Of a DNA stretch of 64,000 nucleotides, positions 38 to 26,281 are shown one piece after another. Source of the stretch: Eledone cirrhosa (taxonomy: Eukaryota); contig OZ024760.1 in the NCBI GenBank assembly GCA_964016885.1, positions 34,472,001 through 34,536,000 on the forward strand, in the 5' to 3' direction. The translations under genes were made by a program, and so were the position numbers. Numbering within the stretch: position 1 is the first letter of the stretch; each line of letters starts with the position of its first letter. The notes below the pieces were generated by a model that ran no database searches, was not told where the DNA came from, and worked only from the letters and a program-made list of their open reading frames with translations.

Positions 38-2085
38 TTAAACCTTATTTAATGTTAGTCTATATTTTTGAATAAACATATTTTCCTTATTTATTCGCAT
101 TTGTTCTGTTGTATTGTTAGCGCAAAGGTAAAATGGGAAGACTTGGAATTTGGGTGTCTTATTACTTGCGCAAATGTCTAGATGTGCACTTAGTGGTATC
201 TGTCTCGTGGTTGGATCTCGTAATTGTTGGCGATGAACTGTCATTCTGTTTCTGAGTGTGAGTTTAGTTTGTCCTATATAATCTTCATTGCATCCTTTAC
301 ATTTAATGGCATAAATTAAATTTTTTGATGAGCAAGTGAAGTGATTTTTTACAGTAAAATTTTGTCCTGATTTAAATGTATACGTGTTGCCTTCAATGAG
401 GTGAGTGCAGGTTCCACAATTAGAGCGACCACATTTTTTGATACTTGGTTGTGGGTTTGTGGTAGGTAATTTGGCATTGGTGAGTAATGTTTTCAGTGAT
501 TTTGGTTGTCTTTTGCTTTTGATTATTTTGTGTGTTTCAAGGGCTTTTTTCATTCTTGGGTTTTGTTTTAGTAGTGGGATGTTATTGTGAATAGTGTTGT
601 AAGCTTCCGCATTTTTTGGGTTGTGTGTTGAGATATATGATAGAATATTGGACGTACCTTGAATTTGTTTCTGTTTCCGTAATTCATCAATGCCTATTGC
701 TTTAGCCCTTTCTATTCCATTATTTATTAGTAATAGTGGGTACTCTCTCTCAAGTAGAATTTCCTTTAATTCTTGAAGTCTTTTATTTCGCGTTTCATAA
801 TTGGAGACAATTGTGCAAATTCTTCTTGCTAGGTTAAAAGGAATGTTCGTCTTCGTGTGCTTTGGATGGTTGGAGGTGAATAGCAGATATTGTTTGGAAT
901 CTGTTGGTTTGTAGTGTATGTCAGTTTCGATATTTGTGTCTTTTTTTGTGATTAAGATGTCCAGAAATGGGAGTTGATCTTGGCTGTATTCCATTGTGAA
1001 TTGGATGTGGTTATTGATGCCGTTTATTAAGTTTTTGAAATCCTTCAGTTGGTCGAGTGTGTGGGACCAAAGAATGAGGCAATCATCCAAGTAGCGTTTC
1101 CAATTCTCTGATAAATATTTGTGGAAGTTCAATCCGTATTTTGATTTGGACTGTTCATATATCTGGACTTCTAAGTATGCCATGACTAAGTTGGCATAAG
1201 TTGGAGCGGCTTTTGTGCCCATCGCAGTCCCCGATATTTGCTTGTAAGTATTGCCATCGAAATCAAAAAAGTTGTTCTGTAGGATGAATTTTAATCCCTC
1301 GGTGATGAAGCTTTTTTCTATTCTGTCAGGTATCTCATTGGGATATTTCTCTAGCCAGAATCCTATTGCTTCTAGTCCGTATTGGTGTGGGATCGTTGTG
1401 TAGAGATTCACTACATCGAAAGACACAATAATAGTGTCGTTGTTGACATGTTTGGGGAGGTGGTTTAAGAGGTCCAGATCGTCTCTTACAAGGCTTGGTA
1501 TGTGTTTCAGTATTGGTTTCAGTAGTATGTCTATAAAGTTGCTCAATCTTTGTGTTTCACATTGTGGGCCCGCTACAATTGGTCTTAATTTAAGGTCTGT
1601 GGGGGTATTGTGTGTTCACGCAGGCTGAGGTGGATTGTTTACAGGCATCGTTGATTATTTTACATTTGTGGATCTTCGGAAGTCCGTAAAGGTTGCTGGT
1701 TTTGTATTCAAAATTTGTTAAATAATCGCGTTCCTTTTTAGTTAGGTCTTCCTGGTATCGATAAATCAGTGTGTTTAATTTGGTCATTATTTTTGATTGC
1801 TGGTAGTTTTTTACTCTTTCATAGTAATTAGTATTTTGTAAGAGAGAGAACATAGAATTTTTATATTTTTCAGCCTCCATAATGACAACAGAACTTCCCT
1901 TGTCCGTTTCCTTCATTACAATGTCCGTATTGTTTTTTAGTTCATGGATAATCTCCCATTCCCTTCGACTTGTGTTGGGTTTGGGTTTAGGTTGCGGTAG
2001 TTCATGGTATGGGAAGGTAGCTATGTGGTCACAAAATTTGTCCAGAACTCTGTTTCTACCTTTTGTTGGGTTGTAGCTGCTTTCA
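38..2085 (-). mobile_element. Penelope-like retroelement (Neptune-like), 5'-truncated, RT + GIY-YIG endonuclease ORF split by one frameshift near 1590-1615
   Basis: ORF 1590-2165 gives IVMKETDKG and LYGLPKIHK. The alternate frame reads LRPIVAG into ORF 38-1546, which has SFDVVNLYT, GTAMGTKAAPTYANL, WKRYLDD, LPFLDI, a Cys-rich linker CGRSNCGTC and the GIY-YIG motif LIYAIKC..YIGQT..RM..H. The 3' end runs off the window. Confidence 0.92.
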
Positions 2086-2560
2086 CATGACAGCCAAATT
2101 TCATTTATAACCAACCAAAAAAAAGCCTTCGTGAGCCTCCTTTTTTCAAGTAAAAAGAAATTCAAACACTCATATTTGAAAAAACAACCTGTGACAACCC
2201 CCCCTCTCTTATTTGAAGAACTATTGTAACGCGAACTGGCGCGAAATTTATTATAATTATTGACAAACCAATCAAATTACTTCTCGAAAAACCTGGCTTT
2301 CGAGCCACTTTTTCCATATAAAACAAGTAACATTTAGAGACCAACCAGATGTGAGAAAAACCACAGACCCTCCATCTCAACTCACCTTTTGAAAAGCAGA
2401 AGAACTGCGAAACCGGTAAAAGAACCAAATAAATATATATATTTTTTAAAAAAATAAGACTTCAGTTGCATTTTCGATTTCATCTCTTTTTCTTTATACT
2501 TCCACTCGTGTAGGACACCTCGGTTATTTTTCATTTTGTAAAAAAAAACCTCACTTTCTA
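2086..2560 (+). mobile_element. Probable inverted pseudo-LTR of the adjacent Penelope-like element
   Basis: Non-coding segment fused to the truncated 5' end of the PLE. It carries a hammerhead motif on the strand opposite the ORF and ends in (TA)n. The cognate 3' pLTR lies outside the window, so identity is not verified. Confidence 0.55.
2385..2422 (+). ncRNA. Minimal type I hammerhead ribozyme-like motif (U3-A8 core variant)
   Basis: cctt-TTGAAAA-GCAG aagaa CTGC-GAAA-CCGG-TA-aaag: perfect 4-bp stem II, palindromic ACCGGT stem III region, GUA cleavage triplet. Stem I is weak (one mismatch). Confidence 0.6.
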
Positions 2561-2615
2561 ATATATATGTATATATATATATATGTATATATATATATGT
2601 ATATATATATATATG

Positions 2616-2688
<73 letters not shown>

Positions 2689-2709
2689 ATATATATATAT
2701 GTATATATG

Positions 2710-2740
<31 letters not shown>

Positions 2741-2825
2741 GTGTATATATATGTATATATATATATATGTATATATATGTATATATATATATGTATATAT
2801 ATGTATATATATATATATATATGTG

Positions 2826-2870
<45 letters not shown>

Positions 2871-3638
2871 GTATATATATGTATATATATATATGTATAT
2901 ATATATGTATATATATGTATATATATATATATGTATATATATATATGTATATATATGTATATATATGTATATATATGTATATATATATATATGTATATAT
3001 ATATGTATATATATGGATATATATATATATATGTATATATATGTATATATATATATTATATATTATATATAATATAGTATATATGATATATATATATGTA
3101 TATATATGATATATATATTAATATATTATATGTATATATATATATATATATTATATATATATATATATATTATATATATAAGTATATATAGTATATATAA
3201 TATATATATATATGTATATATATATAATATATATATATATATATGTAATATATAGATATATATATATATATATATGTATATTAATATATATATATATAGA
3301 TATATATATATGTATATATGTATATATATATATATATCGTATTCATATGTATATATATATATATGTATATATGTATATATGTATATATATATATATGTAT
3401 ATATGTATATATATATATATTATATATATTATATGTATATATTATATATATATATATGTATATGTATATATGTATATATATTATATGATATATATATATT
3501 ATGATATATTATATATATATATATAAGTTTATATATATGTATATATATATATATATGTATATATATGTATATATATATATATGTATATAATGTATATGTA
3601 TATATATGTATATATGTATATATATATATATATGTATA

Positions 3639-3717
<79 letters not shown>

Positions 3718-3770
3718 GTATATATATGTATATATATATATATATGTATATATATGTATATATATATATA
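2561..3770. repeat. (TA)n/(TATG)n microsatellite, ~1.2 kb
   Basis: Direct reading; source of the spurious YI-repeat ORFs. Confidence 0.98.
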
Positions 3771-3783
3771 TTTATTAAAATAA

Positions 3784-3857
3784 CAGATTAAAGTTTAAGC
3801 AAAGAATCGCTGCTTTCACCCTTAACGGGATCTTCTGAAACTAACAAAGTCAATCTG
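3784..3857 (-). ncRNA. Type I hammerhead-like motif with CAGAAGA core in the PLE 3' pLTR
   Basis: Minus strand: CAGATTGA..AGTTT-CAGAAGA-TCCC gttaa GGGT-GAAA-GCAG cgattct TTGC-TT-AAACT-TTAATCTG. All three stems plus a distal stem I extension can be drawn. Confidence 0.6.
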
Positions 3858-3932
3858 TAAACGCAGAAGTGGATATTTCAAAAAACGTCGCAACCAGAGG
3901 AAGACAGGAAGACGATACTTTGGTTCGTGGGA

Positions 3933-4200
3933 ACGTTCCCTGGCAAAGAAGGGGAAAAAACGAATATAATACGTCATTAATAGGAGCGGTGAAAAACAAT
4001 TACGCGCAAAGACAGAACCACGTTTATGGTATAAAAGAGGTCGTAGACTAATGTTCTCTTAGGTGGTTCATAGAGACGTTCTCTGGCAATGAACGAAAAA
4101 AACGAAGATAATACGTCATATGTGGTCCGTGGAGAACAATTGCACGCAAAGACAAAAACACGTAAATGGTATAGCAGAAATCGTAGACTAAAATTCTAAC
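3933..4200. repeat. Two diverged ~145-bp tandem units in the PLE 3' UTR
   Basis: acgtt..ctggcaa..aaaaaacgaa..ataatacgtcat..aacaatt..cgcaaagaca..tcgtagactaa occurs twice. Confidence 0.75.
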
Positions 4201-6004
4201 TAGGAGACCGAATGAATCTCCGCTTCAGAGTTAACAACAAAGTAAATAAATACAATACAGAGGTAATAGAAATTAAATAAATACATACAGGCAAACAAAT
4301 ACGTACATACACAAGCATACGCGAAAACACTTACCATAGGTATACAAATAAATAAATAATTAAATAAACGTATATAAATAAATATGTAAATAACAAGCGC
4401 ACACACATACCTACATGTAAATACACAAATGTTCGGAGACGTAAGTCAACCAAAAAATGAAGTACACATATACACACACCCTACATACGTACGAACCTGC
4501 ATACTCACACAGACGCAAAACTCCCGTATACACATAACCAAACCATATGTACCAGAATATGTAAAATTATACGCCAAAACATATACAATCAAATATACGT
4601 ACGAGAAGGTATACGTACCTTCACAAAACATACAGGTAATATATACTTACCTATGCAAATAAGTAATGGTATAAACAAAACATATACTTAGCTACCACAT
4701 CCAGACGTAAAATATCCACGTATAGATCGTACTATCCGATAGGGTATAGCGTGGGGCTGTAATACAGGAAAGTTTTGTGCAATTTATGTTTACAAGCCGA
4801 AATTGCCTCAGATTTTTTGTTTAAGATGTGGTCTGTGGCGTAGAGTATTTCCAAGGCCTCAGCGGTGCAGAGGTCACATGGTCTTTTATTTCCGTTATAC
4901 GAACTAGCCCTAGCTAGGATCTCCCAGTGTAACTTATTTTGGGTGTGGTCGTCTTTTAGACTCCAGATATAAGCTGAAAGTGACGTCATATTCCTTCTTA
5001 GAGGGTAACGAAAAGAATGGGTATGCATGTAAAGACGCTGCTTGAATCTATTGGCGGTTAACCCTATGTAGGCCCTACGGGACGTGGGTGTTTCAACCTT
5101 ACATTTGTAGACAATGTTACTAGAGAGGCATTTCCCGGATAGGGGGCAATCAACCCGATTCCTACAATTACAGTTAGTACTAACTACAGGGTTGCACGTG
5201 TTTCTGCAGCTAGGTAGTTTAGCTAAATTTGAAGCTGTGATGTTATGTGCAAGGTTAGGAGTTGTAGAGTAAGAAATTTTAATAGTATTTCTATTAAAAA
5301 TTTTACTATATTTATGTGTAGGGGGAAAATGCTTCGTAATAAGGGAACGAAAGATCTTAGCTAATGGTGTGGCCACCTCCATATTATATGGTGGGTTATA
5401 CCAACAAATGCGACGGGATCTATTTCTTCTAGTTCTATTTTCGTACTCTGTATATGCTACCTTATCGACAAATCCACTCCGAGCAAGAGCTTCATTGTAA
5501 TAAGTGGAATGGTCGTTGAAAATATGCTCGTTAGTAGATAGACGGGAAAGCCTCAACGAAACGTTTCTTACCAGGTTCTTGGTTATGCTGGCAGGATGGT
5601 TGGAATGTTTACTTATGTAATTAAGCATAATACAACCCATTCAGTAAATTGAGGGTAACGTCGAGGTAATTAACGACCGAGAGGTTGAAGCCTTTAAAGA
5701 AGGCTGTGAGTTCTTTTCTGAACCTGTCGAAAGCACGAGGTCCGCACTTAGTCATGGTCAAAAGACCATCATCACGGTACAAACCACCGCCCGCGTTGGG
5801 GTATTCGTCCTTAGCGATTCTTTGCTTAAACTTTAATCTGTTATTTTAATAAATATTTGCTCTACGGTTCTTATATATTTGATATATATTTATCCTTATC
5901 GAGCCCTCTTTGGATTTTAGTCTTAAAATTTATTATTATTACTATATATATATATATATATATAATAATATATAAGATCGAAATATGGTTAAAAGAGTCC
6001 CATG

Positions 6005-6075
6005 TATTTTATTATGCGCATTTCAAAAACAAATATCATCATGCAATAACATTTGCGTTTTCGTCAGATAAAATA
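6005..6075 (-). ncRNA. Type I hammerhead ribozyme (left arm of palindrome)
   Basis: Exact reverse complement of 6209-6279. Confidence 0.8.
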
Positions 6076-6208
6076 GGGAGACATGATATGAAGGTTAAAA
6101 CACACTTGTGAATAGTGCAGTTTTAAAGCAACATATTTTAAATCAACATATGTTGATTTAAAACTGCACTATTCACAAGTGTGTTTTAACCTTCATATCA
6201 TGTCTCCC

Positions 6209-6279
6209 TATTTTATCTGACGAAAACGCAAATGTTATTGCATGATGATATTTGTTTTTGAAATGCGCATAATAAAATA
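6209..6279 (+). ncRNA. Type I hammerhead ribozyme (right arm of palindrome)
   Basis: TATTTTAT-CTGACGA-[~16-bp stem II, GCAT loop]-GAAA-TGCGCA-TA-ATAAAATA: canonical core, 8-bp stem I, palindromic stem III. Predicted cleavage is after A6271. Confidence 0.82.
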
Positions 6280-6405
6280 CATGGAACTCTTTTAACCATC
6301 TTTTGATCTTATATATTATTATTTATACTGCAGTCCTACAAACTGTAGAGTGCTACTTATCTGATATCTGCATTGCTTTATTGTACTACAATAAAACTCA
6401 CCTCC

Positions 6406-6407
<2 letters not shown>

Positions 6408-6473
<66 letters not shown>

Positions 6474-6476
6474 TAC
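6408..6476. repeat. (TA)n microsatellite
   Basis: Direct reading. Confidence 0.95.
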
Positions 6477-9400
6477 TCCAATCCGGACTGCCTGGCGCTA
6501 TAAAAGACAGATTCTATGAGACACTGATGCTCACTACCTCCCAAATAACCGACAGTGACTATATAATTATTGCTGGCGACCTAAATGGTCATATGGACAA
6601 CATTATGACGGAATCCACGGAGGCTATGGGTTTGGTACTAGAAACGAGGAAGGCTCCAGAATCCTGGAATTCTGTGATGCAAATAACCTAACTATCTGTA
6701 ACACTAACTTTAAAAGACGAGACAATCACCTGATCACCTACAGATCAGGGGAACATACCAGCTAGGTAGATTATATCCTTACCAGAAGACGTGACAGTGT
6801 CTGTTGTAAACACTAAATCCCTCCCCCATGAAGAATTCACCTCCCAACATAGACTGATAATTAGCGACCTCATAGTCAGGACGAGACGTACTAGACAGCA
6901 GAAGAGGACTATCCTCAGGAGAAAAATATGGAAGCTAAAGGATCCCACAGCCAGAAATAAATTTAAAAGCATATTACTTGATGCTTTCGACAGTAAGGAA
7001 GAGCAATTAGAGTCGTACAATATAGAGGAACAGTGGGAATTCCTGAAAGCAAACCTGCTGATGGCGGCAGACGAAGTCTGTGGCTGGAGCAGGCCTGTAG
7101 GCAGGAGGAGAGTAACATGGTGGTGGAACAGTGAGGTGGAGGGGTCAATCAAGGTCAAAAACCAGGCTTGGAAAGCATGGCGGGATGGGGGAAGTAGAGA
7201 AGACTATCAAGTGGCCAGGAGGGAAGCTAGGAGACAAGTGTACGTCGCAAGAAGGGAAGCAGAGGAAAGAAAGTTCAAGCATGTTCTACAACGCGAGGAC
7301 CAAAAACGTGAGGTGTTCAGGATTGCTAGGCAATGTGTCAAGGAAAACCGTGATATTGTCGGGGAGAAGTGTGTACTTAATGATGATGGCGAGTATGCCA
7401 TCACTGACGCTGATAAGAAGGTAGCTTGGAAGTGTCACTACGAAAGGCTACTAAATGAGGAGAATAAATGGGAGATAGACAGTCTCCCCCACATCGACCC
7501 AATAGAGGGACCAGCAGTGTTAGTCCAGGGTAGTATAATAAGTAAGGCAATCAAAGATATGAAGACGGGTAAGGCGGCTGGGGCTTCGGAAATAGTTGCT
7601 GAGATGCTGAAAGCCTCTGGAACGGTGGGACACACCATGGTCACCCGGATAGTAAACCAAGTCATACAGAATGGGGTTGTTCCGAAGGACTGGCGTAGCA
7701 GCATCATCGTTAACTGTTACAAGGGTAAAGGAGACGCCCTAGATAGGAGTAACTATAGAGGCATTAAATTAATCGACCAGGTCATGAAGGTCACGGAAAA
7801 AGTAATAGCACAACTAATCAGAGAGAGAATTGATCTAGATGAAATGCAGTTCGGGTTTGTGTCAGGCAAAAGTACCACAGACACTCTTTTCATTGTACGA
7901 CAACTACAGGAGAAGTACCTAGCTAAAAGTAAACCCCTATACTTAGCTTCCGTCGACTTGGAGAAAGCCTTCGACAGAGTCCCCTGTTACATTATCTGGT
8001 GGGCTCTTAGAAAACTAGGTGTTGATGAATGGCTTGTGAGAGCTATACAAGCCATGTATAAAGAAACAGTCAGCAAGGTCAGAATTAACAACGAATATAG
8101 TGAAGAGTTTAGCGTAAAAGTTGGCGTTCATCAGGGCTCCGTCCTTATCCCCCTACTATTTATTATTGCCTTTCAGGCTATAACAGTGGAGTTCAAGACC
8201 GGCTGCCCATGGGAACTCCTATACGCAGATGATCTAACGCTCATAGCTGAATTAATGGCCGAGCTAGAGAAGAAATTCCAAACATGGAAGCACGGCCTAG
8301 AATCAAAAGGCCTTAAAATTAACCTGGCTAAGACTAAAGTTCTAGTTTGTAGGAAAGAAAATAAGGCGCCGGTCCCTTCCGGGAAATAGCCATGCTCAGT
8401 GTGTAGGAAAGGCGTAGGTAGAAACTCCGTTTTATGTCCCAAATGCAAAGTATGGGTGCATAAAAGATGTAGTGGGATCACAGGTAAGCTAACTAAGAAC
8501 ATAGATTTTACATGTGGCCGGTGCTCTGGTGCAATAAGTAGCAGCAAGTGCCCCAAAAATACTAGCTCTTTCAATTACGCAGAGGGTTCTATAGAAATAG
8601 TGGACAGCTTCCGTTACCTGGGTGACAAGATCAGCAATGGGGGAGGGTGCTCTGAAAGTACAGTAGCTAGAGTCAGAACTGGATGGAAAAAGTTCAGAGA
8701 GCTTATACCACTATTAGCTGCTAAAGGGTTTCTCCCTAAAAATGAAAGGCAGGCTGTATGATGCCTGCATACGAACAGCAATGTTGCATGGCAGTGAGAC
8801 CTGGGCATTGTGCGCAGAGGATATACGCAGGCTAGAAAGGAACGAAGCTTGCATGCTCCGCTGGATGTATAATAGTAATATACGCGAACGGCAAAGCATA
8901 AACGAACTAAGGGAAAAATTAGAAATAAGAGGGATCAGATGTTGTTTACTCGAGAGAAGGCTACGTTGGTATGGTCACGTGATGCGCATGAAAGACGACA
9001 GCTGTATAAAAAGTGCAGGGCAATAAAGGTAGACGGTAGCCACGGAGGAGGCAGACCCAGAAAAACCTGGGACGACCTGATAAATTCCGACCTCACACGC
9101 TTATACCTCTTCAAGACAATGTCACTGGACCAAGATCTTTGGCGGTACTCAGTAATAGAGAAGACCCGCCTTACCTAAGTACAAAGTGAAACCTACTACA
9201 GTCAGTAGGCACCTCTAACAAAAATACACCCCCGTCCCACCACCCCCACCCCATCGACACCACTCCTTTCAATGTAAAGTTATGTTGGTGCCACAACATC
9301 CAGGCCGAAACAAATGAGATCGTGTAGGTGTCACGACAAAAAAACACACAGTCCACGCTGTAATGTGGCCGTGTAGGCAACACGGTAAAAACCTCCCGGC

Positions 9401-9562
9401 CCCACACTGTAAATGTGGTTGGTGTTAGGAAGGGCATCCAGCTGTAGAAAACCCGCCAGACAGTCCTATGCCAGCAAGACAACTTGCTTCAAGTGGGAAA
9501 ACTCCCGTCCAAACCCATGCAAGCGTGGAACATGGACGTTAAACGATGATGATGATGATGAT
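6477..9562 (+). mobile_element. RTE-clade non-LTR retrotransposon, copy A (5'-truncated within the AP endonuclease; frameshifts and a TAG stop)
   Basis: Starts at QSGLPGAIKDRFYE. ORF 6791-8389 has NYRGIKL, QFGF, VDLEKAFDRVP, GVHQGSVL, LLYADDL. The C-terminus has RLRWYGHVMRM..GRPRKTW, and the element ends in a (GAT)n tail at 9544-9562. Confidence 0.95.
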
Positions 9563-9622
9563 GTGTATATTTATATATATATATATATAGATATATATAT
9601 ATGTGTGTATATATATATATAT

Positions 9623-9714
<92 letters not shown>

Positions 9715-9717
9715 ATT

Positions 9718-9806
<89 letters not shown>

Positions 9807-9883
9807 GTATATATATATATGTGTATATATATATATGTATATATATATGTATATATATATATATATGTGTATATATATATATG

Positions 9884-9916
<33 letters not shown>

Positions 9917-9996
9917 GTGTATATATATATATGTATATATATATATATGTGTATATATATATATATGTGTATATATATATATGTATGTGTATATAT
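9563..9996. repeat. (TA)n/(TG) microsatellite
   Basis: Direct reading. Confidence 0.97.
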
Positions 9997-10608
9997 GGTG
10001 TCAGGTCACCAGTTGCTGCTACTGGTAACATGTATCCCAGTACAACCTGTCTCATGGTCGGGTCGTTGGCGACTAAACTGGCAACCCCACCAAGGTTTCT
10101 TGGTGAGGAGGGTGACTTTGGACATCCTGCAGGACTAAAAACAAAACCTGTCAAAGGGCAAAGGAGCTCTTAAGAGTCAATGGCCATCCAAAATCACCGG
10201 GAGAGATGACCCCTTAGCCTTTGTCAAGGCAGAATTCTAGGAGAAGGAAAACTCTGATATAACACCTGCAACCCTGATGGTATCCAATGATGTTGACTTG
10301 TTCTTCTTTTTGGTAAATATCATCTTGGTTAAGAGAGTGGGACTGGCTTTGTGCAGTGCCTTTGCTCACTATAAAAGCTTCACGGCACAGGCATTGCTTT
10401 ATATCTGGAGATCTCTCTGCACTTGTCCTCACATGGTACCATGGGCCCAGCACTATGTGTCAATAATTGTCACAAGTGTAGTGTTTGTACCAGAGTTTTC
10501 AAGTCGCTGGCTGGACTAAAAAGTCACACTCGTTCAGCGCTTCGGTAGGGGTTCTCCTACATGGATATAAAGTAGTGGCCGTACTCGAAAACGAGTTGGC
10601 AGCCACCA
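9997..10608. other. GC-richer island between microsatellites; probably LINE 5'-leader fragment(s)
   Basis: Contains CTAGGAGAAGGAAAACTCTGA, which resembles a motif recalled from RTE 5' UTRs, and hairpin-rich ends on both strands. No convincing ORF. Confidence 0.35.
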
Positions 10609-10642
10609 TATGTATATATATATATGTGTATATATATATATA

Positions 10643-10673
<31 letters not shown>

Positions 10674-10722
10674 GTGTGTATATATATATATATATATGTG
10701 TATATATATATATATATGTGTG

Positions 10723-10758
<36 letters not shown>

Positions 10759-10826
10759 TGTATAAAATATTAAAAAAATAATGAATAAAACAATGAAACA
10801 GTTCCTTATATTAAACAAAAAAAGTT

Positions 10827-10977
10827 CATTATTTAACGATCGTTTCTAGGATATATATGTGTTAGAATTGGCATGCATATTCAACAGATCTATGTACAAA
10901 ATTATACAAAATTATACAAACTATCAAGATTAAATATACATACCAAACACACATATATGCCGTCTTCAGAAATAATG
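10827..10977 (-). ncRNA. Type I hammerhead-like motif with very long stem II/loop
   Basis: Minus strand: CATTATTT-CTGAAGA-cggcATATATGTGT...ACACATATATatccta-GAAAC GATC GT-T-AAATAATG. It has an 8-bp stem I and a palindromic stem III; the base of stem II is imperfect. Confidence 0.6.
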
Positions 10978-11043
10978 TATATGTATATATATATATATGT
11001 ATATAATATATAATATATATGTATATAATATATAATATATATG

Positions 11044-11134
<91 letters not shown>

Positions 11135-11136
11135 AT

Positions 11137-11307
11137 ATAATAGAAAATCAAAAGATGGTTAAAAGAGTTCCATGTATTTTATTATGCGCATTTCAAAAAC
11201 AAATATCATCATGAGATGACATTAGCGTTTTCGTCATATAAAATAGGGAGACATGATATGAAGGTTAAAAAACACTTGTGAATAGTGCAGTTTTAAATCA
11301 ACATATG
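11137..11307 (-). mobile_element. Solo copy of the palindrome arm with degenerate hammerhead (11175-11245, core ATGACGA)
   Basis: Closely matches the left arm of the 5962-6322 palindrome, ends at the palindrome centre, and is flanked by microsatellite. Confidence 0.88.
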
Positions 11308-11343
11308 AAAAGTGATATATATATATGTGTTTATATATATATC

Positions 11344-11459
11344 ACTTGCTTCAAGTGGGAAAACTCCCGTCCAAACCCATGCAAGCGTGGAACATGGACG
11401 TTAAACGATGATGATGATGATGATGTGTATATTTATATATATATATATATAGATATATA

Positions 11460-11480
<21 letters not shown>
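11344..11480 (+). repeat. Local duplicate of the RTE copy A 3' end, (GAT)n tail and flanking microsatellite
   Basis: Matches 9482-~9620 including the gtgtatatttatat...tagatat flank. Confidence 0.9.
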
Positions 11481-11542
<62 letters not shown>

Positions 11543-11581
11543 GTGTGTATATATATATATATGTGTATATATATATATATA

Positions 11582-11647
<66 letters not shown>

Positions 11648-11652
<5 letters not shown>

Positions 11653-12650
11653 TGATGACACTAAGGTAGCACAGGCAATCAAAAACCCGGCTGACGTTGC
11701 CCTTTTACAATAAGATCTTTATGCCATATACAAATGGGCGGAAGAAAACAACATGCAGTTTAATGCTGTCAAATTCCAAGCCCTACAATGTAAACCTCCA
11801 AACAAACCTGCAAACACAAACTACACAGGACAACACAACTACAACACAACTACACAGGACCAGGAGGGACCGATATCCCCGTGTCAAAATCGATACAAGA
11901 TCTGGGCATAGACATGAGCAATGATGCATCTTTTTCCTCACACATCATGAAAGTGGCGTGAATGTGCAGATGACTCGCTGGCTGGATCTTGAGGACTTTC
12001 CGGACAAGAGACCGAGACACCATGTTGACACTATGGAGGACATTAGTCCTAAGCCGCCTGGACTACTGCTCCCAGTTGTCGTCACCCCTAGTGTCAAACT
12101 AACCACGGAGCTTGAGGCAATCCAGCGAAGCTACACCAAGAGGATTGCCACGATGAAGGAGACAAGCTACTGGGAGAGGCTAAAGGAACTGAACCTCTAC
12201 GCCCTGGAACGAAGACGGGAGAGATACGCAGTGATCTACATTTGGAAAATCCTGGACCGACTAGCACCAAACTTTGGCATTGGGAGCTGGACCAACCGTC
12301 TAACAGGACGTCACTATGTGGTGCCAAAGGTCCCGTCTTCCACATCTAGAATAAGGAACAGGTATTGCAATAGCCTGGGATTCAAGGGCCCTCAACTCTT
12401 CAACAAGCTGCCGAGGGATCTGAGAGATTTGCATGACGTGGAGGTGGATGTCTTCAAGAAACATCTCAACACCTTGTTATCCTAGATCCCGGATGAGCCC
12501 ACAGCAAGGCACGAGGGAAACCTAAGGGCAGCAGCAACAAACTCCCTCTTATACCAGTGGCCAACCTATACAGGCTGGAGATAAAATGTGTAGCAACAAG
12601 GGTGGTGCCCCAGCATGGCCTCAGCCGGATGGCTGAAACAGGTAAAAGAG
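11648..12650 (+). mobile_element. CR1-like non-LTR retrotransposon 3' fragment (degenerate)
   Basis: YADDTKV..LQ*DL..IYKWAEENNMQFN, DLGI, GWILRTF, RLDYCSQL, LEAIQRSYTKRI..YWERLKELNLYALERRRER..IWKIL, spread over several frames. Confidence 0.88.
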
Positions 12651-12713
12651 TATATATATATATATATATATATGTGTATATATATATGTATCTCTGTATA
12701 TATATATATATAT

Positions 12714-13018
12714 GTGGCACATGGCTTAGTGGTTAGAGCATTGGCCTTGCAATCGAAAGGTTGTGAGTTCATTTCTCAGACCGGGTGATGTGTTGTTTCC
12801 TTGAGCAAGACACTTTATTTCACATTGCTCCAGTTAACTCAGCTGTAGAAATGAGATGATAGGGACTGGGGTCCCTACCATTCCACTGCAAAGTGGTCGT
12901 GGAAGTGCCACGGCAAAAAAGCAACCAGCACTCACTGTAAATGAGGTTGGTGTTAGGAAGGGCATCCAGCTGTAGATATCAAGCCAGAATCAGTTCCAGT
13001 CCCACTCTTGCAAGCATG
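12714..13018 (+). mobile_element. tRNA-derived SINE with CORE-like central domain and RTE-derived 3' tail
   Basis: A box TGGCTTAGTGG, B box-like GAGTTCATTTC, central CCTTGAGCAAGACACTT..CAGCTGTAGAAATG, and a tail shared with RTE copy C. Near-identical copy at 19743. Confidence 0.85.
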
Positions 13019-13074
13019 AGTTAGACGGGTTGTCCTGTTGTGGGCAGTGTCCAGTCGGCTGATCTTGACTTGCT

Positions 13075-14090
13075 CATACGGGAACTGATTCTGGCTTGAT
13101 TTCTACAGCTGGATGCCCTTCCTAACACCAACCTCATTTACAGTGAGTGCTGGTACTTTTTTTCCGTAACGCCTGCACGTCCACTTTACAGTGTGGGCTG
13201 GGTGCTTTTTTGCCGTGGCACCTCCACGACCACTTTGCAGTGGGAGGGTGTAGGGGCATATTGTCTATATACTTCAGCTTGTACCCGTGGGGGGTCGGGT
13301 CTTCTGTATTACTGCATGACGCCAGAGGTCACGGTCGTGTGTCATCGCCTTTGAGATGTGTAATTGTGTAAGATCGGCTTTTATCACCTCATCCCAGGTC
13401 TTCTTGGGTCTCCCCACCCCGCGGTTCCCATCGACTTCTAGCCCTCTGCACCTTTTTATGCAGCTGTTATCCTTCATACGCATCACATGTCCATACCAAC
13501 ACAACCGCCTCTCCTGCACACAGCATTTGATTCCTCTTATGCTCAGTCTCTCTCTCAATTCATTTATGCTTTGCCGTTCACGTATATTACTATTACACAT
13601 CCATCGGAGCATGCAGGCTTCGTTTCTTTCTAATCTATGCAAGTCTTCCACAGTCAACGCCCAGGTCTCACTACCATGTAACATTGTTGTTCGGATACAC
13701 GCATCATACAGTCTGCCTTTCATTTTGAGGGAAAAGTCTTTTGCAACTAGCAGTGGCAGTAGCTCCCTGAACTTCTTCCATCCCGTTCTGACCCTAGTTA
13801 TTGTACTTTCTGAACACCCACCTCCACTGCTGATTCGGTCACCTAGGTAGCAGAAGCTGTATACTGTTTCTACAGAGCCCTCCCAGAATTTGGTGGTACT
13901 TGTTTCCTGTGGCTGTTTGCTGCTTGCTGTCCCAGCACAGCTGCTATATATGAAGCCTACATTCTTAGTTAAGCTTCCTGAGATCCTGCTACATCTCTTG
14001 TGTACCCATTGTTTGCATTTGGGGCAGAGAATGGAGTTCCTACCTACACCTTTCCTACATACTGAGCAAGGCTATTTCCCTGAGGGGATC
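13075..14090 (-). mobile_element. RTE-clade LINE 3' fragment, copy C (diverged subfamily)
   Basis: PSGK*PCSVCRKGVGRNSILCPKC..., followed by ORF 13274-13723 MKGRLYDAC..GRPKKTW. The 3' UTR contains GGTTGGTGTTAGGAAGGGCATCCAG. Confidence 0.92.
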
Positions 14091-14125
14091 TATGTATATA
14101 TATGTATCTATGTATATATATATAC

Positions 14126-14885
14126 AGACTGCGCAAACAGGAAAGGAACGAAGCATGCATGCTCCGTTGGATGTGTAATAGTAATATACGTGAACGGCAA
14201 GGCATAAATGAACTAAGTGAGAAATTAGGAATAAGAGGGATCAGATGCTGTTTACTTGAGAGAAGACTACGTTGGTATGGTCGCATGATGTGCATGAAAG
14301 ACGACAGCTGCATAAAAAGTGCAGGGCGATCAAAATTGATGGCAGTTACGGAGTAGGTAGACCCAGAAAAACCTGGGACGATCTGATAAATTCCAACCTT
14401 ACACACTTGCACTTCTCTAAGACAATGTCACTGGACCGAGATCTTTGGTGCTACGTAATAATACAGAAGACCCGCCTTGCCTATGTACAAAGCGAAACCT
14501 ACAGTCAGTAGGCACCTCCTAACCAAATATACACCCCAATCCACTACCCCACCCTATCCTCCCACTCCCACCACACCACCCTCTTTCTGTAAAGTTGGTA
14601 CCACAACATCCAGTCAGAGATAATGAGATCGAGATCGTGTAAGTGTCACGACAAAAAAAAAAACAAAAAAAAACTCTGTAATGTGGCCGTGTAGGTAACA
14701 CGGTAAAAAGTTCCCAGTTCCACACTGTAAATGTGGTTGGTGTTAGGAAGGGCATCCAGCCGTAGAAAGCCTGACAGATAGTCCTATATGAGCGAGACAC
14801 GGCCAACCTGGCCTCAAGTCGCACAACTCCCGTCTAACCCATGCTAGCGTGGAGAATGGACGTTAAACGATGATGATGATGATGA
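14126..14885 (+). mobile_element. RTE-clade LINE short 3' fragment, copy D (A/B-related)
   Basis: ERNEACMLRWMC..RLRWYG..GRPRKTW, a 3' UTR like copy A, and a (GAT)n tail. Confidence 0.92.
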
Positions 14886-15117
14886 TATATATATGTATCT
14901 ATATATATATATATATCTACGTATATACATGTATCTATATATACATATATATATATATCTACGTATATATATGTATCTATTTATATATATGTATCTATGT
15001 ATATATATGTATCTATGTATATATATGTATCTATTTATATATATGTATCTATGTATATATATGTATCTATGTATATATATATATATATGTATCTATGTAT
15101 ATATATGTATCTATGTA
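14885..15117. repeat. TA-rich microsatellite (TATGTATC variants)
   Basis: Direct reading. Confidence 0.95.
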
Positions 15118-15671
15118 TGGCTGGATAATCTTTAAGATTTTCCTCGATGAAGAAGGAAAATGCAGGTTTTCACCATGTCTAACTTAATAGGGGATCAAGA
15201 AAATGAATTTTTTTAATATGCCTTGAAATTTCTGGAAAATTGGATAGACGTAACTCCTCAAAAAAGCCCTAAAAAGCTGAAAAAATGAACTTTTTCACCT
15301 AATGCGGGTCCTAGGCCATAAAAAAGTTGGATTTTCTTTGCTGACAGTACGAAGAAGAGACTGACTAATACATAGTTACAATTTCAAGGAAATCGGTCTG
15401 GCGTAACGCCTCAAAAAACCCCTAAAAACTGAATTAACGCAGTTTTCCACCTAATGTGGGCCCTAGGGGATCAAAAAGTCGAATTTTTTATGTGCATAAC
15501 ACTCCCTGAAACATAAGTAAAGTTTGAAAAAAATCAGTTGGGTACTTCTCGGGTTTCACCCCCACACATATACACATATACATACATACACCATACATAC
15601 ATACATACATACATACATACATACATACATACATACATACATACATACATACATACATACATCCTTCCTCA

Positions 15672-15719
<48 letters not shown>

Positions 15720-16177
15720 TTAAAATAACAGATTAAAGTTTAAGCAAAGAATTGTTGCTTTCACCCTTAACGGGATCTTCTGAAACTAAAAAAATCAATC
15801 TGTGAACGCAGAAGTAAATATTTCGAAAAACGTTGCAACCGAAGGAAAACAGGAAGACGATACTTTGGTTCGTGAAGACGTTCCCTGGCAATGAACGGAT
15901 AATAGCGACCATAATACGTCATCAGTGTTCCTCAGAATGTCGTAATGCAGACAGCCAGGCATACAGAGATATTATAAGAGGGCGACGGAGATGGATAACC
16001 GGCGCCTAACACCCCTTTAACAACAGAAAATTGAAAAATAAAAGCTGCAGTTAATATCTTTAGACCGCAAGGAATATATAAATGCAAGTTTGAAGTCAAT
16101 CGGAGTAGAAATGCGGATTTGTATAGACTTTGCAAAATGAGGACACAGACAGAAAACAACAGTTTTATATATATAGA
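15117..16177 (-). mobile_element. Non-autonomous Helitron-like element, 3'-truncated, interrupted by (CATA)n/(TA)n and a PLE pLTR fragment
   Basis: Minus strand starts TCTATATATATAAAACTG. Positions 15117-15560 and 15930-15987 are reverse-complement homologues of parts of 18889-19729. Confidence 0.65.
15718..15925 (-). mobile_element. Solo pLTR fragment of the Naiad-like PLE family with hammerhead-like motif (15729-15802)
   Basis: Homologous to 3774-~3980. Retains the CAGAAGA core; stem III is GCAA/TTGC. Confidence 0.85.
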
Positions 16178-16734
16178 TATATATATGTGTGTGTGTGTGT
16201 CTTTAAGTTACATCGATTTGTGACTGTTTGGAATGGTACCTTCTAGTAGTGTGTTGTTTAGTTTAGTAAATGTATACATTTAACCAAGCTCATTAGTGTA
16301 AAGCAGATTCTCTGACAGAAAAGGAAAAGACGAAGAAAATATGAAAGATTTTTGAAGAAATTACTTTCTTTAAACACTTTGGCAAAAATCAATATGGAGC
16401 AAGGAATGGTAATCGGTTTTTGACAGTTGGCTCATGTCTTCAGTTTTACATTTACTCATAAATATCATTTTAGAAATAGACAGAAGGAAATATTTTACTA
16501 CAGAGAATATTTTATTGATTGAGAAAATCTGGGGGGGGGGGGGAGTATGTATATGTGCGTGTGTGTATGTGTATGTATCTGTTTGTGTGTGTGCATGTAA
16601 TATGTGCGTGTGTGCATGTGTATGCATCTGTTTGTGTGTGTATGTATGTATCTGGTTGTGTGTGTGTGTGTACGTATCTGTGTGTGTATTATCTCATATT
16701 TATAAGCCAGCTTTAAATGATGATAAATATGTAT

Positions 16735-16850
16735 TATCCCATATATATTTTCATATATTATCCCATATATATTTTCATATATTATCCTATATATATTTTC
16801 ATATATTATCCCATATATATTTTCATGTATTATCCCATGTATATTCATGT
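16735..16850. repeat. 24-bp minisatellite (TATTATCCCATATATATTTTCATA) x~5
   Basis: Direct reading. Confidence 0.9.
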
Positions 16851-16853
16851 ATA

Positions 16854-16990
16854 GGCGGTGAATTGGCAGAGTCATTAGAATGTCAGATAGAATGCTTTAT
16901 GGTGTTCGTTCTGACTCTCTGCTCTCTGAGTTCAAATCCCGCTGAGCTTAACTTCCGAGGTCGATAAAAAATACCAGTCTCGTACCAGGG
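16854..16990 (+). mobile_element. tRNA-derived SINE family 2, diverged and internally deleted copy
   Basis: GGCGGTGAATTGGCAGA..GAGTTCAAATCCCGC..GGTCGATAAAA..TACCAG. Confidence 0.7.
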
Positions 16991-17427
16991 TTGATTCTTC
17001 CTCTCTTTGGCTGTGCTTAGGCCTGGAGAGGGATGGGCTCCGCCAGGATTAAAATGCCCAAGAAACGCTGTATGCCAATATGGCGCCCCTGTGACTCTAT
17101 CAGAAGATACAGGACCATACATACACATACATATTTATATACATTATCTCCTTATAATATATAACCAGCAATTTCTCTGTCTGTCTGTCCGACAGTGGAA
17201 ACACGTGCGCGTGTGGTTGCTATCTCTCTCTCTCTCCAGCTATCCCTCTCTTTTAGTCTGTCTGTTTCACTCACTCTCACTCTTTCTCTTTGTAACACAC
17301 TAACATTCCTCCCCTCTATCGCTGTGACGAATGGGGAGATGGAGGAGGAGGAGAGAGAGTCACTTCGTCACTTCACCTCTGCCTTTCTTTCTCTCCCCTC
17401 TCACTCCCTCATTACGTACAGACATTA

Positions 17428-17617
17428 GGGCGGTGGATTGGCAGAATCTGTAGAGAGTCGGACACCATGCTTCATAGCATGGAGTTACGTCCCTTTACGG
17501 TCTGACTTCAAATACCGCCGAGGTTAACTTTGCCTTTCATCCTCACGGGGTCGATAAAATAAAGTACCAGTAATGTACTGGGTAATTGCTGGCCTTGTGC
17601 CAAAAGTAGAAACAATT
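17428..17617 (+). mobile_element. tRNA-derived SINE family 2 (central GCCTTTCATCC..GGGGTCGATAAAAT..GTACCAG domain, Meta-like from memory)
   Basis: A and B boxes plus a conserved body shared with copies at 18421, 26280, 26845, 27050 and 27316. Confidence 0.85.
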
Positions 17618-17738
17618 CTTAGAAACATTGCTTCATTTTTACATATCTAAGCATTAGTAAAATAACTAATAATTTCAAAAGTAATTTTTCAATTCCAATT
17701 GTTATGAACAGCAAAACATTAATAATAATTTTGTTCTA

Positions 17739-17863
17739 AGAAATATATATACATTTCTGTGTGTGTAATATATATATATACACACAGAAATATATATACA
17801 TTTCTGTGTGTGTAATATATATATATATACAGACAGAAATATATATACATTTCTGTGTGTGTA

Positions 17864-17900
<37 letters not shown>

Positions 17901-17928
17901 GAAATATATATACATTTCTGTGTGTGTA

Positions 17929-17959
<31 letters not shown>

Positions 17960-17968
17960 GAAATATAT
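17739..17968. repeat. Variable-length (~46-60 bp) minisatellite built from alternating palindromes
   Basis: The unit CAGAAATATATATACATTTCTG-TGTGTGTAAT(AT)nACACA is repeated about four times. Confidence 0.9.
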
Positions 17969-18222
17969 CGGCATTTCTCTGTTTGTCTGTCTGTCTGTCC
18001 TTCCCTAAAACTCAAATGTAGGTGCTACAGAAATATTACCTTCCTCTTCCTTCCTCCACTTTGGTACTACCAAGAGAAACCCTGTTGCTATAGAAACATT
18101 ACCTTCCCCTCTCCACTGACTTTGGTCACTGAGGCCGAGGGAATCGCTGGTTGCTATAGAGACACCTTACACAAGCCAGAAGTAACCAGTTCGAGGCGGT
18201 TCTGACTTGACACCATGCCAAG

Positions 18223-18888
18223 TCTACTTATAATATATAATGGGCATTTCTCTGTTTGTTTGTCTGTCTGTCCGTCTGTAAAAAATGCCAAGGAAACAAA
18301 TAGACGCGGTTTCAAATCTCTATTATGCTTTTCAAATTCATTACATTAATCTTTATTTATACGTTTCGCTTTACGAGTGTTTCGACTTACGAGTATTTCG
18401 GCTTACGAGTGTTTCGGCTTATCATGCTTTGACGCATAGAGTTACGGCCCTTGCCATTCTGAGTTCAAATCCCGCCGAGGTTAACTTTGCCTTTCATCCT
18501 TACGGGGGTCGATAAAATAAAGTACCAGTAATACACTGGGTAATTGCTGGCCTTGTGCCAAAAGTAGAAACAATTATATATAAACGTTTCTATTTCCATC
18601 GTTTTATCGTAAACGTTTATATATTTCCATCGTTATATCATAACGTTTATGTATCATAACGTTTATATTTCCGTCACTAATCTCTTTTTCTCCTTTTTCG
18701 TTTTAACATATATTTATTTCAAAGATTTCACCGTATAGATAACATATATATTTATACATGCATAAAAGACACACCGAGAGACGGTGAACATGTGGTGCCG
18801 AAAACATTTCTCATCCAAATCTCAACAATATCAGTATATACACTAGATTTGCTAGCAGAAAACCGCCCACCGGGTGGTTTTCTGCTAG
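18223..18888 (+). mobile_element. Putative non-autonomous Helitron-like element containing a SINE fragment (18421-18576) and a 16-bp minisatellite
   Basis: 5' TCTACTTATAATATATAA..(TCTG)n, with a similar start at 17147. The 3' end is a 17-bp hairpin ending in CTAG. Continuity between the two ends is inferred. Confidence 0.5.
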
Positions 18889-19729
18889 TCTATATATATA
18901 AAACTGACGATGTCTGTCTGTGTGTATGTGAGTTTGAATATTTAAGGGAATGTTCTGAGCAAAAAAAATGTCAAATTTTCACATTAGGCGATTTAGTGAT
19001 CTCTCTCTATAATTCTTAGTTTTTCTCTTTTTAGATAGATACATACGTCGCGCCCTTATAATATCTGTCTGTATGTCTGGATGTCTGCATTACGTCACTT
19101 CCCTGAGGATGTCTGTCTGTGTGTGTGTCTGTGAGTTTGAATCCCTAAAACTCGAGAAGTACCCAACCGATTTTTTTTTAAACTTTACATGTGTATTACT
19201 TGTTTCAAGGAGTGTTATGCACATAAACAAATTCAACTTTTTGATCTCCTAGGGCCTGCATTAGGTGAAAAACTGCGTTTTTTAAGCTTTTTAGGGTTTT
19301 TTTGAGGCGTTACGTCAGACCGATTTCCTTGAAATTGTAACTATGCATTAGTCAGTCTCTTCATACCGTGAGCAAAGAAAATCCAACTTTTTTTATGGCC
19401 TAGGGCCAACATTAGGTGAAAAACTTCATTTTTTCCAGCTTCTTAGGGCCTTTTGGAGGCGTTACGTCTAGCCGATTTTCCCGAAATTTCAAGGCATATT
19501 ATGCACATAAAAAAAATTCATTTTCTTGATCCCCTAGGGCCCGCATTAGGTGAAAACCTACATTTTTCCTGCTTCATCGAGGAAAATCTTAAAGAATATC
19601 CAGCCATCAGAGTATTCGGTTTATTTTCTTTACATATTGTCCAGGCATGCAGTTTTTCCACGATTAGGTCTGTTGGCGGCCCGCGTTCCAAAATACCTTA
19701 TCCCATGCAACGCCGGGTACCGCTGCTAG
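18889..19729 (+). mobile_element. Non-autonomous Helitron-like element
   Basis: 5' TCTATATATATAAAACTG and (TCTG)n; 3' GCAACGCCGGGTACCGCTGCTAG|T; internal ~145-bp subrepeats (ATTAGGTGAAAA x3); no TIR or TSD. A homologue lies inverted at 15117-16177. Confidence 0.72.
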
Positions 19730-19742
19730 TATATATATATAT

Positions 19743-20077
19743 GGAGGCACATGGCTTAGTGGTTAGAGCATTGGCCTTGCAATCGAAAGGTTGTGAGTTC
19801 AATTCTCAGACCGGGTGATGTGTTGTTTCCTTGAGCAAGACACTTTATTTCACATTGCTCCAGTTTACTCAGCTGTAGAAATGAGATGATAGGGACTGGG
19901 GTCTCTATCATTCCACTGCAAAGTGGTCGTGGAGGTGCTATGGTAAAAAAGCACCCAGCACTCACTGTAAATGAGGTTGGTGTTAGGAAGGGCATCCAGC
20001 TGTAGAAATCAAGCCAAAATCAGTTCCCGTCCCACCCTTGCAAGCAGGGAAAAAGCGGACGTAAAATGAAATGAAAT
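19743..20077 (+). mobile_element. Complete tRNA/CORE-like/RTE-tail SINE
   Basis: Near-identical to 12714-13018 and ends GGACGTAAAATGAAATGAAAT. Confidence 0.88.
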
Positions 20078-21430: not shown

Positions 21431-21621
21431 TCACCACCACCACCACCACCACTACACAACCACCACCACTGCACAACCACCACCACCACACCACCACCAC
21501 CACTACACCACCACCACCACACCACCACCACTACACCACCACCACTACACCACCACTACACCACCACCACCACCACCGCCACTACACCACCACCACCACC
21601 ACTACACCACCACCACCACCA
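21431..21621. repeat. (CAC)n microsatellite
   Basis: Direct reading. Confidence 0.95.

Positions 21622-26249: not shown

Positions 26250-26279
<30 letters not shown>

Positions 26280-26281
<2 letters not shown>

Follow-up and report, generated by a model that had tools for sequence, protein, structure and literature searches.

The seven hammerhead motifs located between positions 2086 and 15925 of the 64,000-nucleotide stretch analysed here (the window) are very probably the 3' ends (pseudo-LTRs, pLTRs) of six insertions that lie in TA microsatellites. Truncated Penelope-like coding sequence adjoins two of these insertions, and the rest are likely truncated Penelope ends as well. Their clustering would reflect abundant families and TA-rich surroundings, and the ribozymes would be carried along as passengers, most of them predicted to lack activity or to be sequestered. 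The literature on Penelope-like elements (PLEs) already describes inverted 5' copies, tails on one side only, hammerhead pairs on opposite strands and (TA)n targeting. The locus itself is of small importance: it holds known Penelope insertion products crowded into a TA-rich stretch.

Seven motifs that parse as type I hammerheads, in four families

All seven motifs (M1 to M7, with left-most coordinates 2385(+), 3784(-), 6005(-), 6209(+), 10827(-), 11175(-) and 15729(-)) parse as type I hammerheads. Self-BLAST bears out the four families proposed in the original prediction: A (M1), B (M2 and M7), C (M3, M4 and M6) and D (M5). The seven motifs represent six insertion events. Core positions C3/H17 fall at 2389/2418(+) in M1, 3837/3797(-) in M2, 6067/6013(-) in M3, 6217/6271(+) in M4, 10969/10835(-) in M5, 11237/11183(-) in M6 and 15782/15742(-) in M7. 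The canonical core (C3-U4-G5-A6-N7-G8-A9 / G12-A13-A14-A15.1 / U16.1-H17) is present in M3, M4 and M5. In M1 the core carries U3-A8, a covariant already known; M2 and M7 carry U4A, and in M6 the C3-G8 pair is broken because of C3A. Three helices surround the core, with helix I open; helix I measures 5-8 bp in six of the seven motifs and only 2 bp in M1. Cut-site triplets are GUA (M1), CUU (M2, M7), AUA (M3, M4) and GUU (M5).

Type I motifs in PLE pseudo-LTRs, mostly solo or as opposite-strand pairs 100-700 bp apart, are described in the portion of Cervera and de la Pena (2014, PMC4209133) considered here. That portion agrees with our motifs in the type I fold at PLE ends, the palindromic helix III and the U3-A8 core variant; it gives a helix II of 6-8 bp, against longer helix II regions of 36 nt in family C and 116 nt (the separation of the core halves of M5) in family D, and does not mention the U4A core of family B.

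Penelope-like elements and the ends of the insertions

PLE2 (3776..5812, minus strand) belongs to the Hydra clade of Penelope elements; its 5' truncation falls immediately ahead of the YRDD motif. It has a frameshift near 5620-5640 and a 3' UTR of ~950 nt with a 140-bp direct repeat (3933-4191). Its ORF gave no Pfam match. With the Hydra clade, known to have (TA)n targets (Craig et al. 2021, PMC8557442), it shares the CxCX5C linker, the lack of CCHH, a 3' hammerhead and the TA targets, and CxxC and CxH flank the conserved E and N; it differs in the long 3' UTR, U4A and G15.2-C16.2. The RWK and DKT motifs, found in most of 16 aligned relatives, belong to a region that PLE2 has lost to truncation, and read and contig loose ends at 5812 run on in other copies. 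The same paper reports Hydra-1_Obim of Octopus bimaculoides, also with a hammerhead, whose motif resembles M2 in the U at the cut site; PLE2 is a separate family, its protein and hammerhead sequence differing by eye, and a motif search of the supplement did not find the PLE2 motif.

M2 (3784..3857, minus strand) combines its U4A core with a U-U at 10.1/11.1, G15.2-C16.2, a 5-bp helix I and an 8-bp outer helix, and its predicted cut is after 3797. The opposite end of PLE2 consists of an inverted 44-nt copy of its extreme 3' end (5813..5856, plus strand; 100% identical to 3768-3811), which includes the 3' part of the motif but no core, followed by a one-sided family B tail (5857..5941, plus strand) with a GCTC...GAGC motif at 5859-5904. 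Position 3776 is linked with 5849, on the opposite strand, by 286 reads, and the end at 5856 passes into (AT)n, as 125 contigs and also 697 reads show. M7 (15729..15802, minus strand), with the same U4A core as M2, lies in a solo family B 3' end (15719..15931, minus strand) that is 89% identical to 3774-3977 and joins (CT)n(TA)n.

Family C forms a palindrome (5967..6317, centre 6149/6150) next to a TA run at 5943-5974; its arms are alike except for 3 substitutions and a duplicated stretch of 15 nt at the junction. M3 (6005..6075, minus strand; predicted cut after 6013) has an 8-bp helix I and a palindromic helix III, and M4 (6209..6279, plus strand; predicted cut after 6271) is identical on the other strand. 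The right arm alone extends further (6318..6408, plus strand), up to (TA)n at 6409-6475. This extension, which is missing from the other two family C copies, has high read depth, is spanned by a contig of run X4 (6288-6400) and is likely the family C tail. A solo copy (11140..11307, minus strand), 93-95% identical to the palindrome arms, contains M6 (11175..11245, minus strand). The family D solo unit (10761..10977, minus strand), flanked by TA on both sides, contains M5 (10827..10977, minus strand), again with an 8-bp helix I and a palindromic helix III (predicted cut after 10835).

PLE2 and family C both show an inverted copy that is truncated on its 5' side, together with a tail confined to one end. 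Both traits are known from published PLE insertions, where tails measure 30-40 bp against 85-90 nt here. The original prediction had the two ends pointing away from each other in three insertions. This holds with two motifs for the palindrome, the only outward-facing pair of ribozymes, and in terminal sequence only for PLE2; at PLE1 we infer the same architecture.

PLE1 (38..2084, minus strand) comprises a reverse transcriptase, a CX4CxxC linker (C394/C399/C402) and, at its C terminus, a GIY-YIG domain, with Pfam RVT_1 and GIY-YIG both above cut-off, as in EN+ Penelope-like elements. The protein is 78% identical to P0001 and 77% to an O. bimaculoides protein, lacks ~75 N-terminal residues (5'-truncated) and has a frameshift near 1600; homology stops near 2084 and the 3' UTR extends beyond the left window edge. 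Among 16 sequences, the linker cysteines together with C438, C441 and H460 of the CCHH are invariant and H477 nearly so. On its linker (CX2-5CxxC in the Neptune clade) and CCHH residues, PLE1 appears Neptune-like; it shares with this clade the C-terminal GIY-YIG, the linker, the CCHH residues, a DKG motif and the TA bias. The linker also resembles that of Nematis. Neptune relatives were seen at 2 weak, uninformative loci in viral contigs and at 2 loci in GTDB contigs. By eye, a hammerhead is present at both Neptune-like loci inspected.

Beside the truncation point of PLE1 lies a segment that ends in M1 (2085..2442, plus strand). Given its position and orientation it is likely an inverted 3' UTR/pLTR, putatively of PLE1, with no self-BLAST match to PLE1 within the window. 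M1 (2385..2422, plus strand; predicted cut after 2418) has a 4-bp helix II and a palindromic helix III. By analogy with PLE2, the sequence from the short TA run to the long TA tract (2443..2560, plus strand) is possibly the tail of a putative inverted family A copy. The hammerhead of Poseidon_Ac, a PLE of Anolis, overlaps the ORF start (Frangieh et al. 2024, PMC11167929), whereas a search downstream of M1 with 10 homologues returned nothing meaningful for a PLE N-terminus.

Poseidon_Ac, though of a different clade, serves as our model of the mechanism: it nicks AT-rich DNA, and two internal reverse transcription start sites make its tail (PMC11167929). Following published PLE work, the GIY-YIG nuclease of the element would nick AT-rich DNA, after which reverse transcription would begin a few tens of nucleotides beyond the hammerhead and usually halt early, so that mostly the ribozyme-bearing end would survive. 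Through a second round of priming, the 5' junction would gain a truncated copy in inverted orientation, with use of the second start site leaving a tail at one end only; where both copies are short, a palindrome as in family C would result.

The proposed Penelope-derived origin is borne out by the hammerhead-bearing 3' ends, inverted 5' copies and TA targets, together with protein evidence for PLE1 and PLE2 and read evidence for the TA junctions and tails. For families A, C and D a PLE origin is inferred, as no copy attached to a PLE ORF occurs within the window. Pattern scans of viral contigs returned 0 matches for family A and 0 for family C.

It is also conceivable, but unlikely, that families C and D are short non-autonomous hammerhead elements of fixed length (solo retrozyme-like or foldback units) mobilised by PLE proteins, and not random truncations of full elements. 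Non-LTR retrozymes (PMC7229834; bioRxiv 10.64898/2026.07.22.740005) are likewise short and non-coding, and they too contain type I hammerheads; a pLTR origin has been proposed for those of animals. Consistent with such units, no ORF or coding parent of C or D was found in the window, the two C insertions end within ~10 nt of each other at the palindrome centre, and D barely exceeds a hammerhead between TA tracts. However, the defining trait of non-LTR retrozymes, head-to-tail tandem units with a hammerhead each, is absent from the window; moreover, upstream of 6147 a contig of run X8 continues into 37 letters of unrelated sequence, and depth climbs toward the 3' end, as expected of truncated longer elements. 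Repeats spaced by 233 bp at 26.3-27.5 kb, considered as a retrozyme, contain no motif and are copies of a dispersed repeat.

Among Hydra-clade loci with enough downstream DNA, a hammerhead with strong covariation lies 100-520 nt past the ORF in 44 of 60. The U-U at 10.1/11.1 recurs in 19 of 34 related motifs and the U4A/G15.2-C16.2 core in 0 of 34. The tail motif lies downstream of 21 of these 34 hammerheads and upstream of none. Differences in family B number 4/74 in the motif and 19/120 in its upstream flank (post hoc Fisher P=0.04); the motif is the better conserved, a hint of selection while the family was active. Tentatively, a high-copy octopod Hydra-clade family may have spread with U4A, the flipped G15.2-C16.2 and CUU, its fold kept better than the flank. 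Two readings would follow: a new active core variant, or a fold retained for protein binding or priming and not for catalysis. In that case the GCTC...GAGCAC tail motif, present clade-wide immediately beyond the insertion junction, would act as the start signal for Hydra reverse transcription, for which it is a testable candidate.

TA targets, copy number and clustering

As had been proposed, the insertions adjoin TA microsatellites: all seven predicted cut sites have a (TA)>=4 run downstream at a distance of 16-139 nt; among background positions, 16-17% have such a run within 150 nt. A 1.2-kb (TA)n tract (2561..3775) separates the family A end from the PLE2 3' end. Families B and C are present at very high copy. 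Positions 3776-6400 are matched by 36,951 contigs of run X1 and by 45,776 of 12.5 million reads of X21, with depth 20-fold higher at the 3' end than at the 5' end. A rough, RAD-biased estimate from read depth gives ~6,500 B and ~3,200 C copies for a 2.8 Gb genome. On this estimate 14 kb with two insertions each of B and C would exceed the genome average, and real local enrichment is possible.

A special hotspot tied to the satellite, as originally envisaged, finds no support. Within the window, the span of the six events gives P=0.07 if placement is uniform, but P=0.47-0.56 with TA tracts as targets, and RTE tails likewise run into TA (4/4). The cluster was also said to lie next to a satellite block, which is true only loosely: the satellite starts at 29862, 14-27 kb away, and the descriptor used for motif detection gave 0 matches between (15926-29860). 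As a ribozyme carrier the satellite was rejected, with 0 descriptor matches in 29861-64000 and covariance-model matches that are half-motifs (E>1).

RNA cleavage and motif statistics

It had further been suggested that read-through transcripts of either strand could be cut into defined fragments, which would make the locus a functional RNA-processing hotspot. Motifs do occur on both strands, and M3, M4 and M5 have intact cores and an 8-bp helix I. Nonetheless, we consider this very improbable. Each of M3 and M4 has its own complement ahead of it, and both are predicted to lie hidden within a hairpin of ~170 bp (the palindrome is predicted to fold as a single hairpin of -266.6 kcal/mol), with a predicted folding penalty of 101 kcal/mol. 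The cores of M2, M6 and M7 are altered, and a published mutational scan saw low activity for single changes in the CUGA turn; motifs with a short palindromic helix III need dimers and are weak in vitro, and the PLE hammerhead of the anole depended on the protein, with RNA-seq showing no read ends at its cut site (all published). With three cores altered, the helix I of M1 weak and the two best motifs predicted to be buried, read-through chopping is unlikely, and for most copies little or no RNA cleavage is predicted. The hammerhead of Poseidon_Ac is dispensable for insertion in vitro (PMC11167929). Two natural variants, family B with its altered core and thousands of copies and family D with its very long helix II, offer a way to ask whether cleavage matters in transposition.

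With respect to detection, the motifs exceed a shuffled background: the descriptor yields 6 matches in 2086-15925 against a mean of 0.02 (maximum 1) in 60 block dinucleotide shuffles, although its parameters were tuned after the motifs had been seen. With zero core mismatches permitted, 3 matches are left against 0.00 in shuffles. M1 passes solely at a helix I of at least 2, a setting with 3 matches against 0.00. M2 and M7 require the U-U option and were missed by earlier descriptors because these lacked it. Rfam returned no hammerhead among 131 matches at E<=10. A custom covariance model built from 30 Hydra-clade motifs placed M7, M2, M3 and M4 as the top 4 of 27 matches, yet at E 0.22-0.25 (not significant); it ranked M1 13th (E 2.5) and did not pick up M5 and M6. 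A chance origin is possible for M1 alone. That the motifs as a set are chance matches in AT-rich, hairpin-prone DNA is hardly credible: the post hoc tuning, the weak helix I of M1, the missing Rfam match and the model E-values would fit this, but the excess over shuffles does not, every motif faces a TA junction at a spacing found in relatives, and M2 is located at the end of a PLE.

Fold and statistical support of the motifs

A type I hammerhead fold can be assigned to each of the seven hammerhead-like motifs of the original prediction (M1 to M7) at its expected position, and the proposed grouping in four families (A: M1; B: M2 and M7; C: M3, M4 and M6; D: M5) is recovered by self-BLAST. Core positions are described with the standard hammerhead numbering and core consensus. 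M1 (2385-2422, + strand) has a U3-A8 core and a helix I of only two pairs. M2 (3784-3857, - strand) and M7 (15729-15802, - strand) both show well-formed helices with U4A, G15.2-C16.2 and CUU. M3 (6005-6075, - strand) and M5 (10827-10977, - strand) share a canonical core, a helix I of 8 bp and a palindromic helix III. In M3 the helix II region measures 36 nt and the triplet is AUA; M4 (6209-6279, + strand) is identical in sequence to M3, and M6 (11175-11245, - strand) is a third family C copy with C3A. In M5 the triplet is GUU, and the helix II region, which folds into a long hairpin, measures 116 nt, compared with 10-36 nt among 34 Hydra-clade motifs.

The expected excess over shuffled sequence is observed. 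With one core change permitted and a helix I of at least 5 required, a descriptor finds six motifs in 2086-15925, compared with 0.02 on average over 60 shuffles; it was adjusted after the motifs were known, and its earlier versions had not picked up M2 and M7. The same descriptor finds none in the neighbouring 15926-29860, and without the core change it yields three motifs in 2086-15925 (0.00 in shuffles). Model-based tests give weaker support. An Rfam search of the window returned 131 matches, none of them a hammerhead. Related elements supplied 34 distinct motifs, and a custom covariance model was built on 30 of them, for which 89.9% of the cells are paired and 117 are compensatory. With this model M7, M2, M3 and M4 are the top four of 27 matches over 64 kb, though without significance (E 0.22-0.25), M1 ranks 13th, and M5 and M6 are missed.

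Penelope-like elements and probable derivatives carrying the motifs

The locus represents known biology, with new families from known clades of Penelope-like elements (PLEs) inserted in the usual ways. Inverted truncated PLE copies with one-sided tails have been described, as have solo and opposite-strand PLE hammerheads and the U3-A8 variant (PMC4209133). For the Hydra clade, both the targeting of (TA)n and a hammerhead-bearing Octopus family are published (PMC8557442), and in O. vulgaris PLEs are an acknowledged part of the genome, some of it recent.

PLE1 (38-2084, - strand), a 5'-truncated coding remnant, encodes RT and GIY-YIG and is Neptune-like in its CCHH residues and CX4CxxC linker. 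The reading frame shifts near 1600, similarity to homologues ends at ~2084, and the closest named homologue is from Octopus bimaculoides (77% identity), which suggests an octopus-like host. The segment 2085-2442, which ends in M1, sits where an inverted PLE1 copy would lie; self-BLAST gave no match linking it to the PLE1 3' UTR, just 37 nt of which lie inside the window. In both Neptune-like relatives (two loci) a hammerhead-like motif, identified by eye, follows the ORF and is followed by TA. Animal-type Penelope elements also occur in genome bins with bacterial labels (L001, L002; P0018, P0046, P0058, P0072), most likely due to host contamination.

PLE2 (3776-5812, - strand), the second truncated remnant, gives no Pfam hit but has 90 longer homologues and shares the diagnostics of the Hydra clade as given by Craig et al. 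(PMC8557442). It breaks off just before the YRDD motif, where other copies go on (loose ends at 5812). The adjoining 5813-5856 is an exact 44-nt inverted copy of its extreme end, followed by an 85-nt tail, which is linked to the opposite end of PLE2 by 286 reads. The inverted piece has no ribozyme core, and two outward-facing ribozymes are present in the family C palindrome (5967-6317, carrying M3 and M4) only. The palindrome is centred at 6149/6150; its two arms are distinguished by three substitutions, a 15-nt duplication at their junction and a 90-nt extension that one of them alone bears. The seven motifs thus represent six insertions. Two independent family C insertions end no more than ~10 nt apart at the 6-nt palindromic centre (6147-6152, 11302-11314), a possible preferred fold-back or truncation site. 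The long 3' UTR of PLE2 contains a 140-bp direct repeat (3933-4191; 1.8 copies, 78%), and at position 5855 an unrelated repeat is joined to the start of the family B tail by 815 reads of run X21, which may reflect one amplified locus or a composite element.

Over the 74 positions of the motif, M2 and M7 differ at four, none of them paired, compared with 19 differences in 120 positions of the upstream flank (P=0.04, post hoc). From these two copies, and from the lack of any difference at this place among the 40 listed of 353 differences, we infer that U4A is family-wide in B. For comparison we used 78 Hydra-clade metagenome loci (from the best 80 of 513 stretches), 60 of which have at least 250 nt after the ORF. 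A hammerhead is present in 44 of these 60 (34 distinct: 32 with canonical core, two U3-A8); the other 16 comprise 15 with no candidate and one with a weak C3A candidate. C15.2-G16.2 occurs in all 34 and U4A in none, and U-U at 10.1/11.1 is seen in 19 as well as in M2. In the 120 nt downstream of the hammerhead 21/34 have a GCTC...GAGC motif; upstream 0/34 do. In Hydra-clade tails (loci L003-L075) a conserved GCTC...GAGC(AC) is found 20-60 nt past the hammerhead, the PLE2 tail has a copy at 5859-5904, and tail-less copies meet TA just upstream of it; it is a candidate RT start signal. Neither this tail motif, a natural U4A core nor the four motif families were found in searches confined to open-access text.

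TA targets, clustering and other repeats

The window is AT-rich animal DNA with long TA tracts within its first 18 kb. The predicted adjacency to TA is confirmed: each of the seven predicted cut sites is followed by a TA run at a distance of 16-139 nt (background 16-17% within 150 nt). Tails of a LINE that we take to be RTE-like also run into TA (4/4, two of them one local duplication).

Within the window TA content explains the clustering: the span of the six insertion events, 13.4 kb, has P=0.07 if they are placed uniformly and P=0.47-0.56 with TA tracts as targets, and 2521 of the 2941 TA bases fall inside the motif interval. Some local enrichment of B and C insertions is possible: a crude depth estimate, which takes the genome as 2.8 Gb and makes no correction for RAD bias, gives ~6,500 copies of B and ~3,200 of C, an average density below that of the interval. 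The proposed hotspot beside the satellite is not supported, the motifs lying 14-27 kb away from it. This satellite (29862-64000; 34 kb, 14/15-bp units, 29-bp higher-order period) gave no match in the hammerhead descriptor search. Run X1 has 36,951 contigs and run X21 has 45,776 reads that match the region 3776-6400; depth at the PLE2 3' end is 20-fold above that near the 5' end, and 125 contigs and 697 reads run on from the element end at 5856 into (AT)n.

Two long copies of the RTE-like LINE (6479-9563 and 21960-25058) lie in opposite orientation, are 94% identical and have (GAT)n tails; further fragments occur at 13296-14088 and 14132-14882. A 90-nt exact duplication of the LINE tail plus its TA flank (9482-9571 = 11344-11433) is either a recent local duplication or an assembly artefact. 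Another LINE-like coding fragment, without Pfam match, lies between TA tracts (11925-12590). A SINE-like repeat (12716-13016, 19746-20046, 29272-29400) has a tail resembling the LINE 3' end and a weakly tRNA-like head (Rfam E 0.11-1.2, below threshold); two such tails form an inverted pair (12884-13193, 79%). Two dispersed families are found at 17427-17621, 18423-18570 and 26280-27499, and, with internal inverted similarity, at 15117-15556 and 19148-19607.

Prospects for ribozyme cleavage

The suggestion that read-through transcripts of either strand are cut into defined fragments is very improbable. In read-through RNA each arm of the palindrome comes after its own complement, and for M3/M4 the hammerhead fold costs 101 kcal/mol relative to the hairpin (3-14 for the other motifs); the estimate has no tertiary terms, so only this contrast is meaningful. 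M2 and M7 (U4A) and M6 (C3A) have altered cores. In published work, single CUGA-turn changes gave low activity in a mutational scan, U4C lowered activity considerably, and the anole PLE ribozyme was inactive once C3 was changed (PMC11167929). The literature also reports that monomers of tested metazoan PLE hammerheads are inactive and dimers weak, and that the anole PLE hammerhead needs the PLE protein, insertion is possible without the motif, and RNA-seq is without read ends from cleavage (PMC11167929). M5 remains the best candidate for cleavage.
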